Part shown: positions 13,921 through 28,073 of the stretch, in pieces | Position numbering within the stretch: the stretch's first letter is position 1 | Layout of the letters: each line of letters begins with the position of its first letter | Source: Terriglobia bacterium | GTDB lineage: Bacteria; Acidobacteriota; Terriglobia; UBA7540 | Assembly: GCA_035277665.1 (NCBI GenBank) | Contig: DATEKC010000148.1 | Span: 3,164 to 67,163, forward strand | Direction of reading: 5' to 3' | DNA: 64,000 nt | Notes under the pieces: model-generated | Databases searched by the model: none | What the model saw: only the letters and a program-made list of their open reading frames with translations | Told to the model about the DNA's origin: nothing | Program-made: the position numbers and the translations under genes

Positions 13921-15723
13921 ATGTCGAATGGCAATAGCTCCTTCCAAAAGGGAACCTGGAACAGTCTTCCGTCAAATTGCACCCAAAGTTTCACACTGAC
14001 GTATCTCCGCTGTGCCGAATACGGGCTGGTGGCATTAACCGAATGTATATCGTGGGCTGTCACGACAGAGCAGGAATGTGTCCAGTGGGCGTGGCAGACC
14101 GTGAAGAAATGCAGCTGGTGGTCGTGGCTGTTCTGCGTGCTCTTTGCGATCATCACGACGCTTGTGTGCGTTGCTTTTGCGATTGTCACCATCATCGTGT
14201 GCACGGCTGTGGTAATTGTGTGGCAGGTTGTCTGCCTGCTCTGGACCCTCGTCTCGATTATCTTCTGCCTTTCCTATGCGAATGGCGGCACGGCCTTCCT
14301 GCTGACCGACGGGACAGTGATGATGCAGGAATTCAAGTCGTTTTTCGGGGCCACCTGGGCCACTCGAAGATGGTGGAAGCTGACGCCCGACCAGACTGGA
14401 AGTTACTCGGGAGGCAAGTGGAGCCGGCTGGACGATTCCAATCTTGCCAGGACCTATTTTTCTTCCTCGGTGCTGGCCGATGGCAGGATCGTGGTCTGTG
14501 GCGGGGAATATTCTGACGCCTCCGGCACCATCAAGAACGACTGGAACAATTCGTGCGAAATCTATGACCCTGTCGCTAACACCTGGGCTGCTTTCAACAC
14601 TCCTCCCAACCCGGGGGCTGTTGCGTCAATCTGGGACGAAATCGGAGATGCTTCCTGCACCGTCCTGCCTGACGGCACGTTCCTGATGGGTTCCGTTGAC
14701 AGCGCCAACGTGGCGAAACTGGATCCCTCCAGTCTCACCTGGACGGCCATGACTCCCCGGCCGGGGGTCGGCACCAGCGACGAGGATTCGTGGGTGTTGA
14801 TGCCGGACAATACGGTGGTTGCGCCCAGTTGCCAGAACCCTCCCACAACCTGGGTGTATGACATTTCGAGCGACGTGTGGGTCCAAGGAAACTCGCTTTC
14901 CCCCAGCATCGTTGACGTCGTCAATGAAGTTGGTCCTGCCTTGCTTCGATATGACGGTACCGCGTTCTTCCTGGGAAGCAACGAACACACTGCCATATAC
15001 TCACCCACGGCACCGGCAAACCAGCAGTGGACAAACGGCCCTGACCTGCCGAATCAGAACGGCAGCAAAATCGGGATAGTCGATGGCCCGGCGGCATTGA
15101 TGGTGAACGGAAACGTTCTGTTCGGCGCGGGTCCGACGGACGCCTCGGGCGACTGGACCAACCCTTGCTGGTATTTTGAGTTTGACGGGACAACTTTCAA
15201 CCGAACAAATGATCCTCCGAATAACGATTGCCCCACCTACAGCACGCGGCTTCTGCTGCTGCCGAATGGCGAGATTATGTTCTGCAGAGAGGGAGATTCG
15301 TCGTTTTACGCCTACCATTCCGATTCGGCACAGCCGCAGGATAGTTGGCGGCCGGTGATCCAAACCTGCCCGGCGACCATGGCTCCGGGGGACACCATCC
15401 AGGTTTCGGGCCTCCAGTTCAACGGGCTCTCCCAGGCCGTGGCCTATGGCGACGACTCTCAAACCCCGACGAACTACCCGCTGGTGAGGGTTGTCCACAA
15501 GCAAACCGGGCACGTCCGCTACTGCCGCACTTTCAACCACACAACTATGGATAGCAACGGCAACGTGATTCCCTCAATGGGAGTTGCGACTGGCGCGGCC
15601 GTCATCATCACGAATGTCGAGATTCCGGGAGATATCGATCCTGGCGACGCTTCCTTATACGTGGTGGCAAACGGCATCGCTTCGCAACCGTTTGACGTGA
15701 GTATCTGGCCGGTTATTGTCTAA
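13921..15723 (+). CDS. Kelch-type beta-propeller protein (galactose/glyoxal-oxidase-like) with a Cys-rich two-TM N-terminus and a C-terminal Ig-like domain
   Basis: Repeated blade motifs: ADGRIVVCGG, LPDGTFLMGS, MPDNTVVAPS, RYDGTAFFLGS, MVNGNVLFGAG, LPNGEIMFCRE. The C-terminal GDTIQVSGLQFNG...NYPLVRV resembles the E-set domain of galactose oxidases. The N-terminal 120 aa hold 11 Cys and two hydrophobic helices. An AT-rich stretch lies upstream. Confidence 0.75.
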   Translation: MSNGNSSFQKGTWNSLPSNCTQSFTLTYLRCAEYGLVALTECISWAVTTEQECVQWAWQTVKKCSWWSWLFCVLFAIITTLVCVAFAIVTIIVCTAVVIVWQVVCLLWTLVSIIFCLSYANGGTAFLLTDGTVMMQEFKSFFGATWATRRWWKLTPDQTGSYSGGKWSRLDDSNLARTYFSSSVLADGRIVVCGGEYSDASGTIKNDWNNSCEIYDPVANTWAAFNTPPNPGAVASIWDEIGDASCTVLPDGTFLMGSVDSANVAKLDPSSLTWTAMTPRPGVGTSDEDSWVLMPDNTVVAPSCQNPPTTWVYDISSDVWVQGNSLSPSIVDVVNEVGPALLRYDGTAFFLGSNEHTAIYSPTAPANQQWTNGPDLPNQNGSKIGIVDGPAALMVNGNVLFGAGPTDASGDWTNPCWYFEFDGTTFNRTNDPPNNDCPTYSTRLLLLPNGEIMFCREGDSSFYAYHSDSAQPQDSWRPVIQTCPATMAPGDTIQVSGLQFNGLSQAVAYGDDSQTPTNYPLVRVVHKQTGHVRYCRTFNHTTMDSNGNVIPSMGVATGAAVIITNVEIPGDIDPGDASLYVVANGIASQPFDVSIWPVIV

Positions 15724-24732: not shown

Positions 24733-25248
24733 ATGCCGCGAACGCGCAATCTGATGGCTGCAACTATGGGCGAGGCTCTTTTGATCCTCATCGTTGCCGC
24801 AATCGGGCGGGCAACCGGGATGCCTCTAATTTTCGCCAGCCTGGGCCCAACCGCCTACGAACTCCTCGAACAGCCACACTCGAAATCCGCAAGGACCTAC
24901 AATATTGTCGTCGGGCATCTGGTCGGATTGGGCGCAGGCTTTTTTGCCCTCTGGGTTTTCAACGCCTGGGGCAGCCCGAAGGTCCTGTCGGCGGGATTTG
25001 TTCCGGGGATCCGGATATGGGCAACCGTGCTTGCGGGCGCTTTGACAAGCGGCATCACCCTGGCAATCGATGCAAATCAGCCGGCTTCTCTTGCCACATC
25101 TTTGCTCGTATCGTTAGGGTCCATGCAAACCGTCCGTAGCGCAGTTGCGATCATCATCGGAGTCCTGATACTGGCCGGTGTTGGTGAACCGGTAAGGCGT
25201 CAACGCGCGAAGTACCGCCCGGAAGTAAAAGTTCTTCCTCAAAAATGA
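24733..25248 (+). CDS. HPP-family-like integral membrane protein
   Basis: 171 aa with 4-5 TM helices. FASLGPTAYEL and QPASLATSLLV resemble HPP-family motifs. Confidence 0.55.
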   Translation: MPRTRNLMAATMGEALLILIVAAIGRATGMPLIFASLGPTAYELLEQPHSKSARTYNIVVGHLVGLGAGFFALWVFNAWGSPKVLSAGFVPGIRIWATVLAGALTSGITLAIDANQPASLATSLLVSLGSMQTVRSAVAIIIGVLILAGVGEPVRRQRAKYRPEVKVLPQK

Positions 25249-25259
25249 AAGCTCCCTCC

Positions 25260-25334
25260 CGCGATGGACCCGACCACCTGAACGGCGGCTGGGGCATCGT
25301 CCGCCGCTACGATGGCGCGGTCATCAATCAATAA
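25260..25334 (+). pseudogene. Relic of the last ~25 codons of an enolase-family paralog (copy B of the repeat)
   Basis: It translates to RDGPDHLNGGWGIVRRYDGAVINQ*, against RDDREHLNGGWGIVRRYDGAVINQ* at 21827-21901. The two coding differences in the conserved part are synonymous (GTG to GTC, twice). No upstream ORF is attached. Confidence 0.75.
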
Positions 25335-25426: not shown

Positions 25427-25456
25427 TTGACAAGAGCTGACAGGGGGGGGTAGTAT
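25427..25456 (+). promoter_or_regulatory. Sigma-70 promoter TTGACA-18 nt-TAGTAT with a G8 tract in the spacer
   Basis: -35 at 25427-25432 and -10 at 25451-25456. The spacer ends in GGGGGGGG (25443-25450). AAAGGAG lies 6-7 nt before ATG 25511. Confidence 0.6.
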
Positions 25457-25510
25457 CCGCGACAAGGGGAAATAGGCACACAATCGAACCTTCGCAGAAA
25501 GGAGCTGTTC

Positions 25511-25957
25511 ATGAAAACCATCCTTATTTCGGTTTTTATCGCGGTGGTTTCTCTAAGCACACAGGCCCACGCGCAGTGTGGATGTCGCCATATAACGACC
25601 AAACAGATTAATTGCTGTGGACAGTATAAGGGTATCCAAACTTGTGCGGGACCAACTGGTAATTGCAACACTTGCAACTCGTGTGCTCAACAAATCATGT
25701 GCTGTTCGGACAACCTCTGCTCTGCCGGCCTGGGGGGATCCTGCTCGAGCTCTGTGACCTCGCTCAACGGTGGGAATTCAGTTCTTCTAGCGAGCGGGAC
25801 AAACGGCTGCGCAGGAGCAAGCAAGGCCACATTACAAACTAGTCCCGCGGCGCGAGGCGTCTTGCCAGGTAAAGCCGATCCAAAAACGACTGGGCCAGCG
25901 GAGGACAGCCGGAAGGCTTCCGCTTCCACGGCCCCGCAGGGAGGGGGTGCGCAATGA
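25511..25957 (+). CDS. Sec-exported Cys-rich mini-protein 1 (13 Cys in the ~60-aa core, disordered tail)
   Basis: Signal MKTILISVFIAVVSLSTQAHA, then QCGCRHITTKQINCCGQYKGIQTCAGPTGNCNTCNSCAQQIMCCSDNLCSAGLGGSC. Good promoter and RBS. Its stop overlaps the next start (ATGA, 25954-25957). Confidence 0.7.
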   Translation: MKTILISVFIAVVSLSTQAHAQCGCRHITTKQINCCGQYKGIQTCAGPTGNCNTCNSCAQQIMCCSDNLCSAGLGGSCSSSVTSLNGGNSVLLASGTNGCAGASKATLQTSPAARGVLPGKADPKTTGPAEDSRKASASTAPQGGGAQ

Positions 25958-27045
25958 AGAAGAATTCAACCAATGCGATAAAACATGCGCTTCTGATTCT
26001 CGTGCCCTTGCTTTCTGTCGGCGCTCTCCTCCCTCAAGAATCGCCAACGCTGGTTGCAAAGGCAGTGGTCCCCCTGACTGGTACTTTAGCCAGCCTGGGA
26101 CCCCTGATGGAGCCTTCGAGATGCGACCCGGACGGGGGTGTTTATTTACGCGTCTACAGCTCACCGCAGTGGGGTCTCATGCCCGTCATCAGGGTCTCGA
26201 CCGATGGCAAGGAAGCGGCGGAGTTCAGGATTGACCAGATCAGCGACCCGCCGCTGAAGGAGGGCGTTTTACAGGATTTCGCTGTCGACTTGCGGGGCAA
26301 CGTTTATGGCCTGGTATTCCTCAGCAAAACCAACGAGTCGTACGTCGCACGTTTCCAACGCGATGGCCAATTCGATTCAGCCATCAAGCTGGACTCGAAG
26401 GTTTTCCCGACCGCTCTGGCGGTGTTTCCGAGCCGGGAGTTCCTCATGTCCGGCATCGTTCCTGGCTCTGCGGGTCTCAAGGATGGCAAACCGTTCACCG
26501 GCATATTCGATTTGAGCGGGGAACTTGTTAGAAGTGTGCGACTGCCGGGGGACGTCAAGCTTGGATCCGGTCCGGCGGGAGCGAAGAAGGATAACGGAAA
26601 GAAGACGAGCGAGCCGAGAAAATTCTTTGATGCGCAGGCTGACCCGGCCATTCCTTTGACATTGGGTGCCGTTGACGTGGGTGATGACGGGAACGCCTAT
26701 TTGATGCGGGCTTCCCAGCCACCCACAGTGTATGTCGTTTCGCCATCGGGCGACGTTTTGCGCCAGTGGCGTCTGAAAGCGCCTTCGCCGGACTTCTTTC
26801 CTGTGGCGATGAAAGTTTCGAGCGGCAGAATCGCCCTTGCTTTCCAGGAAAACTCCGTCGCTGCCGGATCCAAACCGGCGATCGTCTACTCGGTGTACGA
26901 CTCCTTAAGCGGCGACTTTCTAGCTGAGTATGGTGAGGGAGACGGGGTGGTTGGTGCGCTCGCCTGCTACTCACCCGACGAGTTTACATTCGTCGGGCGG
27001 GACAAAGAGCACCCGCCAGCGATTGTTGAAGCAGTTCCAAGATAG
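25954..27045 (+). CDS. Secreted or membrane-anchored hypothetical protein, beta-rich (propeller-like)
   Basis: N-terminal anchor/signal HALLILVPLLSVGALL. Recurrent beta-strand repeats (GNVYGLVF, GNAYLMRAS, GRIALAFQ, PAIVYSVYD). No family recognised. Translationally coupled to the upstream gene. Confidence 0.65.
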   Translation: MKKNSTNAIKHALLILVPLLSVGALLPQESPTLVAKAVVPLTGTLASLGPLMEPSRCDPDGGVYLRVYSSPQWGLMPVIRVSTDGKEAAEFRIDQISDPPLKEGVLQDFAVDLRGNVYGLVFLSKTNESYVARFQRDGQFDSAIKLDSKVFPTALAVFPSREFLMSGIVPGSAGLKDGKPFTGIFDLSGELVRSVRLPGDVKLGSGPAGAKKDNGKKTSEPRKFFDAQADPAIPLTLGAVDVGDDGNAYLMRASQPPTVYVVSPSGDVLRQWRLKAPSPDFFPVAMKVSSGRIALAFQENSVAAGSKPAIVYSVYDSLSGDFLAEYGEGDGVVGALACYSPDEFTFVGRDKEHPPAIVEAVPR

Positions 27046-27190
27046 ACTATGCTAACGGAACGCTCGGATTATGGTGCTCCTTCACGCGGGTGGGGGGTGA
27101 CAACTCAGGGAATATTTAAGGGGGCAGCGAATAGCACGTCGGCCCGAAGATTTAGCGGGTGCCCTGAGCGCCTGAACTAACGGGACGGAG

Positions 27191-27451
27191 GTGATTAATG
27201 AAGCGACGAAGGTTTATTTTTTTGCAACATTGGCGCTGGCTGTCGCGCTCGGAGCGCCAGTGACTCCAACGACGGCTATCGTACCCTGCTGTCAACAACC
27301 CTGCAGTCAGTGCGGCGGCACGGGAGGTACTGGCTGCTCAACCGGCCAGAGGCCCTGTGACGATTGCAGTTGCTTTTGCGATGGGACGCATGCGAAATGT
27401 TGCTGTAGGACAGGCAACACTATGGTTTGCTTTTCGCTACCCTGTGGTTAG
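27191..27451 (+). CDS. Cys-rich mini-protein 2 (14 Cys in 57 C-terminal residues)
   Basis: IVPCCQQPCSQCGGTGGTGCSTGQRPCDDCSCFCDGTHAKCCCRTGNTMVCFSLPCG. The ORF-track GTG start has no spacing to the SD. A well-spaced ATG at 27198 is in the +1 frame and meets this frame at a T7 tract (27217-27223); see findings. Confidence 0.6.
   Translation: MINEATKVYFFATLALAVALGAPVTPTTAIVPCCQQPCSQCGGTGGTGCSTGQRPCDDCSCFCDGTHAKCCCRTGNTMVCFSLPCG
27217..27223 (+). repeat. T7 homopolymer at the frame junction of Cys-rich gene 2
   Basis: Read directly: ggtttaTTTTTTTgca. Confidence 0.9.
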
Positions 27452-27479
27452 GGACATCACGTGAGAAGGAGGTCTTAAG

Positions 27480-28073
27480 ATGAAGACCGTATTTCTGGTA
27501 TTCCTCGCGGCAGGCACGCTGGGATGCGTGGTGAGTTCCGGCCGGCCCGGGCAGGGCGCCTTCGGGGTGAAAGCGACCAACAATTCCAGCTACCCCCTCC
27601 AAATTGTCTCGATCTCGCCCCAGGTCTCCGAGGACGCGACGGCATTCGAGGGCGCCAGGGTCACCTTGAAAAACAACGGAGACGTCCCATGTAATGCCTT
27701 CGCTGTATCCTTTATTATCACCTTCAGCGACGGCGAGACACGCAGGGCTACGTGGCAAGAGGATCACGTCGCTCTCGGATACACCACACAAATTCCCGCA
27801 ACCGACAATAGGATAATGCAAAACCAAACCTACAACGGGGACGCGACGGGAATGCGGCTGTCTTCCCCGGAATCCGCCGCAGTCAGTGGAATCGAGGCGC
27901 GTCTCGATTACATCGAGATGGCTGACGGAAAGAGGTACGGCGACGACCCGGATAAAGTGGGCCAGGAGTTTCGGATGTCGAGATGGGGCGCCTCCAGCGA
28001 GCGTAAGAGGCTCCTAGCCGTTTATAAGTCGGGCGGAACTGAAGCACTGGTGAATGAACTAGAGCGGAAGTAG
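27480..28073 (+). CDS. Lipoprotein, unknown function
   Basis: Lipobox LAAGTLG-C. AAGGAGG RBS 6 nt upstream. It lies 28 nt after Cys-rich gene 2. Confidence 0.75.
   Translation: MKTVFLVFLAAGTLGCVVSSGRPGQGAFGVKATNNSSYPLQIVSISPQVSEDATAFEGARVTLKNNGDVPCNAFAVSFIITFSDGETRRATWQEDHVALGYTTQIPATDNRIMQNQTYNGDATGMRLSSPESAAVSGIEARLDYIEMADGKRYGDDPDKVGQEFRMSRWGASSERKRLLAVYKSGGTEALVNELERK

Follow-up and report, generated by a model that had tools for sequence, protein, structure and literature searches.

Candidate cysteine-rich head and beta-rich carrier units encoded by a four-gene cassette of Terriglobia

The Terriglobia (phylum Acidobacteriota) are among the most abundant bacteria of soils, and the proteins that they secrete are largely unannotated. 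Here we describe a cassette of four hypothetical genes, designated A to D, in a soil-metagenome contig of a Terriglobia metagenome-assembled genome (MAG; GenBank assembly GCA_035277665.1, contig DATEKC010000148.1, positions 3,164 to 67,163 of the forward strand), the 64,000 nucleotides of which are referred to throughout as the window and are numbered from its first base. The best explanation that we can offer, with a rough probability of 0.45, is that the cassette encodes two extracytoplasmic units, each built from a cysteine-rich head and a beta-rich carrier, and that the heads are knotted by disulfide bonds. A first-pass annotation of this DNA had treated the four genes as a single cassette; the gene order and the cysteine pattern are indeed kept in relatives, but the genes fall into two units, A-B and C-D. 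What had been four hypothetical proteins can now be treated as a defined and testable object, with a two-gene module that occurs in dozens of species-level genomes.

The features of the cassette are listed below with the type of evidence for each in brackets (nt, nucleotides; aa, amino acids; ORF, open reading frame; dN and dS, nonsynonymous and synonymous divergence).

25427 to 25456, + strand: sigma-70-type promoter (TTGACA, 18-nt spacer, TAGTAT)
25457 to 25510, + strand: conserved 5' leader with the Shine-Dalgarno sequence AAGGAG for A (DNA alignment with relatives)
25511 to 25957, + strand: gene A, 148 aa, exported cysteine-rich protein (ORF, homologues, dN/dS)
25954 to 27045, + strand: gene B, 363 aa, exported protein modelled as a six-bladed NHL/Mal s 1-like beta-propeller (AlphaFold2, Foldseek, dN/dS)
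27187 to 27263, + strand: region in which relatives start C, with GGAGG at 27187-27191 and ATG at 27198 (DNA alignment, translation)
27191 to 27451, + strand: ORF C, 86 aa from GTG 27191, 14 Cys (homologues in relatives)
27480 to 28073, + strand: gene D, 197 aa, predicted lipoprotein with an immunoglobulin-like (Ig-like) beta-sandwich (lipobox, model, dN/dS)

This layout agrees in every coordinate with the first-pass annotation, including the sizes of A, B and C, the overlap of the stop codon of A with the ATG of B (ATGA at 25954-25957), the gap of 145 nt between B and C and that of 28 nt between C and D. The 2.9 kb that carry the cassette are identical base for base in six assemblies, down to a run of seven T and another of eight G that are considered below. 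The genes can be taken as real because their dN/dS ratios against the relative L007 are close to 0.2 (A 0.19, B 0.18, D 0.20), and A, B and D are under purifying selection. Values of dS against the same relative are uneven across these neighbouring genes (B 0.52, A 1.0, D 1.6, C saturated), which hints at a mosaic or recombination history inside the cassette.

The A-B pair and its distribution

Protein A begins with a Sec signal peptide, MKTILISVFIAVVSLSTQAHA, with predicted cleavage after AHA21 and Gln as the next residue. A contains two aromatic residues only and no Trp, and its mature part of 127 aa is made up of a head with 12 Cys in residues 23-78 (56 residues) and a flexible tail, rich in Ser, Gly, Ala and Pro, with one lone conserved Cys (C100). 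The 13 Cys of the first-pass annotation are thus correct as a total, but not their placement within about 60 residues, since the 13th stands apart at position 100. All 13 are invariant in the homologues P0002-P0004, which share 72-85% identity with A. An exhaustive HMMER search of 1.8 billion representatives yielded a sole distant relative of A, P0037. A homologue of B follows it with a 4-nt overlap; the surroundings, made up of housekeeping genes, are unrelated and do not include C-D. Over this long range the two proteins have diverged alike, to 32% identity for A and 33% for B.

Protein B also carries an N-terminal signal sequence, and its homologues likewise have Sec-type leaders. The AlphaFold2 model of B, built with 25 homologues, is all-beta with about 24 strands (predicted local distance difference test, pLDDT, 84; predicted template-modelling score, pTM, 0.82) and has a disordered Lys-rich insert at residues 205-226. 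Foldseek matched the model with NHL-type propellers at a target-normalised TM score of about 0.67-0.70, an E value of about 1e-9 and 10-16% identity. The NHL domains of Brat, TRIM2 and Mei-P26 were the top matches, at probability 1.00, and CylK, XusB, YncE and PON1 matched as well, at the level of the fold only. B is therefore modelled as a six-bladed propeller of NHL type at fold level, the number of blades being deduced from the strand list and the Foldseek matches. In sequence, B has one stretch that resembles the Mala_s_1-like family (PF22701) at 19.3 bits (E 1e-3), below the gathering threshold of 27.5 bits, and such weak matches recur in 10 of 25 members of the B family, the best (E 8e-5) also being below threshold. 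The positions conserved in the family are Gly, Phe, Tyr and Pro residues, repeated Asp-Gly turns and two Cys, C57 and C338, which lie on the innermost strands of the first and last blades and may staple the ring. The family alignment contains no conserved His, Glu or Lys, and because of this and of the generic, binding-type propeller fold, B is more readily taken for a scaffold than for an enzyme.

A scan limited to one genome per species located homologues of B at 67 genome loci, nearly all in Terriglobia MAGs and often several per genome, and the family comprises 25 protein clusters; it is a separate, unannotated family restricted to the Acidobacteriota. Locus L021 is assigned to Candidatus Korobacter versatilis. 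What ties it to cysteine-rich proteins is position. Segments with at least 8 Cys per 60 aa numbered 29 in the 1 kb immediately upstream of B on the same strand, against 1-6 in each of the remaining 1-kb bins of both strands, and an exported cysteine-rich ORF stands directly 5' of B at about 27-30 of the 67 loci. The hidden Markov model (HMM) of the canonical upstream family, A6, which consists of 14 proteins, has a match at 27 of the 67, always directly upstream of B, and a few further loci carry cysteine-rich proteins of other types in that place. When the ORFs neighbouring B at 71 loci were clustered all against all, the cysteine-rich ORF was the only conserved neighbour. The A-like proteins upstream of B have Sec-type leaders, and the stop-start overlap of the two genes is found again in L011 and L087. 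In L023, an Illumina MAG, the signal peptide, cysteine-rich head, linker and propeller are joined in one frame of 536 aa, the propeller part having no signal peptide of its own; a second head-propeller fusion, L063, in a Nanopore MAG, deserves less trust. A and B are thus coupled in translation and conserved as a pair in many genomes, and elsewhere the pair is found by itself, in other genomic contexts. A-B is widespread in Terriglobia; C-D is rare and is absent from the P0037 locus.

Some homologues of B (L072, L073, L075 and L078-L080) are split across frames, a number of them in long-read assemblies. These are either pseudogenes or products of indel errors, and fusions or splits seen only in such assemblies call for caution. 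In one clade (L012, 1-5049, and L013, 1-3755), regulator genes, namely those of a GAF/PAS histidine kinase, a response regulator and a sigma-54 activator, are directly followed by a cysteine-rich gene with one or two genes for propellers. After these come three conserved hypothetical genes, which encode 126, 310 and about 240 aa; the third has what by eye appears to be a histidine-kinase H-box.

Canonical A6 proteins have a common order of parts: signal peptide, head, a variable linker that is basic or rich in Pro and Thr, and a tail with the motif VPDRCxH(S/T)Y, in which the Cys is invariant and the Tyr nearly so. Conserved Gly and aromatic residues abound in their heads, which are built on a near-invariant 10-Cys scaffold, C..C.G.GGC..C..GC...C..G.G.CCG...C..C, and their C-terminus, GG[MLI], is at the same time the Shine-Dalgarno sequence of B, contained within the coding sequence. 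The A protein of the window shares with them its position, coupling, signal peptide, even-numbered head cysteines and lone tail Cys, and lacks the VPDRCxH(S/T)Y tail motif. It may be a divergent version of the canonical family, to which a profile-profile comparison (probability 71%, E 3.6e-5) is its only link in sequence.

Each of the 14 canonical members has 8, 10 or 12 head cysteines, and in 13 of them the tail contains a single Cys; A of the window, with 12 + 1, conforms. Disulfides are favored over metal thiolates because such even counts imply that cysteines are gained and lost in pairs. Of the two options named in the first-pass annotation, metallothionein-like proteins or disulfide-knotted mini-proteins, it is consequently the second that gains and the first that loses ground. 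Under thiol chemistry, A and C would act outside the cytoplasm, their thiolates reduced, as sulfur carriers or as metal buffers of a metallothionein-like kind, and would be bound by B and D. The CC, CxC and CxxC spacings, the Gly/Ser/Thr-rich, aromatic-poor composition of A and C in the window, the lone conserved tail Cys (often in a C-x-H-x-Y context), the relatives of C with 13 as well as 14 Cys, and the origin of many host MAGs in peat or anoxic soils would all suit it. We nevertheless hold it to be quite improbable, as the extra head cysteines come in pairs, canonical heads resemble folded knots in their Gly and aromatic content, the Sec leaders would send the proteins to an oxidising compartment, no Pfam metallothionein matches at E values up to 1, and no metal-resistance genes lie nearby.

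The same pair has to be weighed as a peptide with its processing factor, that is, with A (and C) as secreted, defensin- or bacteriocin-like peptides and B as a transient maturation enzyme, chaperone or self-protection factor. A is small, exported and cysteine-rich and has diverged somewhat more quickly than B (its identity to the L007 relative is 70%, that of B 82%), a mature N-terminal Gln is predicted for many A-like proteins, several copies of the family occur per genome, and propellers include peptide-modifying enzymes, of which CylK is among the top Foldseek matches of B. On the other hand, a catalytic set of the His, Glu, Lys or Ser type is not conserved in B, the 71 loci share no neighbouring gene for an exporter or for immunity, A and B are equally diverged at long range, and both the L023 fusion and the strict translational coupling better suit a stable association. 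On balance a processing role for B seems unlikely.

The C-D unit and the case for two units

ORF C encodes a hydrophobic leader followed by 14 Cys in residues 33-85, a span of 53 residues rather than the 57 first given for the same 14 cysteines. Twelve of the 14 are invariant across six relatives, at identities down to 37%, and two vary. The protein is fast-evolving (dN 0.51 against L007). That C might be a diverged copy of A was considered and rejected, since the profile-profile probability was 11% against A6 and 0.8% against A1, which indicates no relation.

The start of C in the window is unusual. Relatives begin the protein at an ATG that follows GGAGG, with leaders such as MKRRRFMLFAILALAV... 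and MKFRKSTF.... The corresponding ATG of the window, at 27198 with GGAGG 6 nt upstream, is out of frame with the cysteine-rich ORF and reads MKRRRFIFLQHWRWLSRSERQ before a stop, the frame being dead after 21 codons because a T-run at 27217-27223 is one base short: it is T7 in the window, and L086 has TTTATGTTATTC. A 5-nt deletion upstream brings GTG 27191 into frame with the cysteine-rich ORF, this GTG overlapping the Shine-Dalgarno sequence. A sequencing error was rejected as the cause, as six independent assemblies are identical here. C may then depend on weak initiation at GTG with a poor n-region, or on slippage at T7, or it may be a very recent pseudogene, one of the three. Export of C is doubtful because its conserved start codon is out of frame, and the description of the products as exported can be kept for A, B and D, which have export signals, but not with any assurance for C. 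The leader of C in L086 (about 40-120), MKRRRFMLF..., is similar to a twin-arginine motif, but the likeness is not conserved, FRK or ARK being found at this place elsewhere among the relatives.

D is predicted to be a bacterial lipoprotein from its signal peptide and lipobox: the leader MKTVFLVFLAAGTLG, which ends in ...LAAGTLG, precedes the lipobox Cys16, and P0032-P0035 have the same pattern. The protein has one lone conserved Cys (C71) and a long C-terminal helix. In a model of the C-D fusion, D forms an Ig-like beta-sandwich with pLDDT above 90, for which Foldseek returned ApaG-like, SadB and RbmA-type sandwiches at the level of a generic fold only. In sequence, D reaches 18.7 bits against DUF5780 (PF19092), below the gathering threshold of 28.2, and just one of the seven members of the D family matches it.

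In P0030 and P0031, C and D are fused, L007 having a single ORF of 292 aa that comprises a leader, a 14-Cys domain, a linker and the D domain. The two are separate, with D as a lipoprotein, in the window and in L085, L086 and L082 (47% identical), with a C-like ORF just upstream each time, and on alignment the lipoprotein signal peptide of the split D falls on the linker that joins the two domains in the fusion. C and D thus appear to be the two halves of what is one polypeptide in relatives. The family is rare, with 7 clusters in 5.8 billion proteins, and a metagenome scan for relatives of D returned a single 1.1-kb JGI contig. The fusion disfavors the suggestion that C is a toxin and D its immunity lipoprotein, which the first-pass annotation had put forward. 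In its favour are the arrangement of a small, exported cysteine-rich ORF with a lipoprotein gene 28 nt 3' of it and the fast evolution of C (dN 0.51). A toxin-immunity pair calls for two separate products, the immunity protein acting in trans, and the alignment of the split-D signal peptide with the fusion linker also speaks against it; the broken start of C beside an intact D is compatible with decay, though not specific to it. We regard the toxin-immunity interpretation as highly improbable.

The reading in terms of two head-and-carrier units can be spelled out as follows. A would be exported by Sec, its 12-Cys head would fold as a disulfide-knotted mini-domain, and its tail would stay flexible, with one unpaired Cys. 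A and B would be made together by way of the ATGA overlap and would most probably assemble, at the cell surface or within the periplasm, into a stoichiometric complex in which B is a docking scaffold and the head of A is displayed. The second unit would follow the same logic with another carrier, the 14-Cys head C being set on a membrane-anchored beta-sandwich lipoprotein, D. We infer that A binds B and C binds D because the fusions in L023, P0030 and P0031 point to physical association, natural fusions being predictors of binding partners. Among the possibilities for their role are binding of an external ligand or surface and an antimicrobial or protective function of the head. Should the complex turn out to serve as a surface device for binding, protection or catalysis, the whole family would be annotated at once.

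Several observations weigh against this reading. About half of the homologues of B have no cysteine-rich neighbour, which shows that B can exist without A. The A6 HMM does not detect A of the window, and this A may be an analogous rather than a homologous partner of B. In the second unit, the cysteines of the C domain number 14 or 13 depending on the relative and are not strictly even, the AlphaFold2 model of the domain is of low confidence (pLDDT below 55), and, with the conserved start of C broken, the unit may be half-dead in the strain from which the window derives.

Promoter, leader and surroundings of the cassette

The near-consensus promoter noticed in the first-pass annotation is present upstream of A, with TTGACA at 25427-25432, TAGTAT at 25451-25456 and 10 of 12 consensus matches. 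Taken alone it is not significant, as one such promoter was found and 1.3 are expected in shuffled sequences. It is probably functional because relatives with a dS of about 1 in the A gene have kept it and the 55-nt leader nearly unchanged; in L007, L008 and L009 there is no change in the -35 hexamer or in the A/T-rich stretch that precedes it. The shared unit has its left border at about 25405, where DNA homology with relatives begins. A G8 tract occupies 25443-25450 within the promoter spacer; in relatives it is G10 with a 19-nt spacer (L007) or interrupted (L008). Phase variation at the G8 or T7 run found no support in the six assemblies, among which neither run varies in length, and only relatives differ. 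A regulatory RNA in the leader was rejected as well, there being no Rfam match, and a candidate stem seen by eye shows no compensatory changes in L007.

Over the six reading frames of the window, at least 9 Cys per 60 aa occur in just three stop-to-stop segments, namely A, C and an artefact at 13938-14513, which is out of frame within a gene of 600 aa. The host ORF of this artefact (13921-15723, 600 aa) has a Cys/Trp-rich hydrophobic N-terminus and, by eye only, resembles a propeller of the kelch or glyoxal-oxidase type. The cassette had been described as less GC-rich than its neighbours; at a GC content of 0.567 against a window mean of 0.581 it falls at the 28th percentile of windows of the same size, and a low-GC island is not supported.

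The four proteins have no significant match in Pfam, NCBIfam, PADLOC or PHROGs, and the best E value in a sequence search of the PDB with A, C and the wider A-like family was 0.03, also not significant; together with the lack of an Rfam match, this bears out their description as uncharacterised. HMM and structure-based searches led to no characterised family, the propeller of B and the sandwich of D being recognisable at fold level only. The absence of PADLOC and PHROGs matches also removed a defence system or phage origin from consideration, and heme or Fe-S motifs were dismissed on reading the sequence, in which there is no CxxCH and no ferredoxin-type spacing. Precomputed Pfam annotation of about 10 kb on each side of the cassette contains no radical-SAM, LanB/M, peptidase or ABC genes, in keeping with the earlier statement that there is no adjacent layout of a bacteriocin or of a ribosomally synthesised and post-translationally modified peptide (RiPP), and it contains no metal-resistance genes. 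Full-text searches of the literature found no description of such a module.

Upstream of the cassette, a 29-aa ORF, MKAPSRDGPDHLNGGWGIVRRYDGAVINQ, at 25245-25334, overlaps the stop of an HPP-family gene by ATGA; it is the "gene relic" (25260-25334) of the first-pass annotation and gene finders call it in each of the six assemblies. Genes for IS110-family transposases closely follow D in L007 (3106-4389) and L085 (1174-2457) and not in the window, and homology between the window and its relatives ends upstream of about 25405. It appears from the IS110 neighbours and this break in homology that the cassette sits in differing contexts in different strains. Gene callers missed C in all six assemblies and also the A-like ORF of L011 (5549-6001), and these small cysteine-rich genes are for that reason under-represented in protein databases.

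Comparison with known systems

The module is new by exclusion, as it matched no known family or system against which it was compared; the folds are common ones and no new mechanism has been demonstrated. The closest likeness in architecture to A-B is found in methylamine dehydrogenase (MauB and MauA) and quinohemoprotein amine dehydrogenase (QhpB and QhpC), in which a small, exported, heavily cross-linked, cysteine-rich subunit is encoded beside an exported propeller. MauA/MauB and QhpC/QhpB work as periplasmic complexes, and the likeness of A-B to them is by analogy. It raises the prospect of a quinoprotein-like or radical-copper-like periplasmic enzyme, in which A would be the small subunit that supplies a cofactor or metal site (the lone Cys with nearby His and Tyr) on the propeller B, and the invariant Cys and nearly invariant Tyr of the canonical tail motif agree with such a site. 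There is, however, no sequence or Pfam relation to the dehydrogenases, B has six blades and not seven, and A has no Trp from which tryptophan tryptophylquinone (TTQ) or cysteine tryptophylquinone (CTQ) could be made; in the window it has just two aromatic residues and its tail lacks the His/Tyr motif. Genes for maturation or electron acceptance, such as mauG, mauD, mauE, qhpD, amicyanin or cytochrome partners, are not present at A-B, nor are maturation genes of the mauG, mauD or qhpD type or electron acceptor genes conserved nearby. An enzyme of this kind is accordingly very hard to credit. The most novel form of the proposal, that A-B is a new two-subunit periplasmic class of the Acidobacteriota in which a small disulfide-knotted subunit supplies a lone reactive Cys (in most relatives within C-x-H-x-Y) for a protein-derived cofactor or metal centre on the six-bladed propeller, is a long shot. 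Were it true, A-B would be a previously unrecognised family of redox or binding enzymes, analogous but unrelated to methylamine dehydrogenase or galactose oxidase.

As to the carrier, the fold of B is common among NHL and Mal s 1-like propellers (Brat, TRIM2, PON1, YncE, XusB, BtuG), but those families do not have the cysteine-rich upstream partner, obligatory by its looks, of B. On the side of the head, A is like the bufferins, Sec-exported RiPPs of the MNIO (DUF692) type, in being a small Cys-containing envelope protein with a signal peptide. Unlike them, it is 127 aa long when mature and has an even-Cys head typical of disulfides; no MNIO (DUF692), DUF2063 or DoxX genes were found near the cassette or in the 71 related loci. 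Lanthipeptide, sactipeptide and ranthipeptide clusters are set apart from the cassette in a similar way, as no modifying enzyme lies nearby or is conserved in the 71 loci. With the bacterial metallothioneins SmtA and BmtA, A and C of the window share cysteine density, CxC and CxxC spacings and a scarcity of aromatic residues; those proteins are cytosolic and without a signal peptide, whereas A has a Sec-type leader, and no metallothionein family of Pfam or NCBIfam matched at E values up to 1.

Eukaryotic secreted cysteine-rich proteins, i.e., defensins, knottins and fungal effectors, offer another parallel, with their signal peptides, compact multi-disulfide heads and fast turnover on a fixed cysteine scaffold. 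No sequence match is significant, the best being CD5L (E 0.03) and scorpion toxins (E 0.4). The Terriglobia proteins differ from these eukaryotic ones in being bacterial, in the attachment of the head to a tail or carrier and in its genetic coupling with a propeller or lipoprotein.

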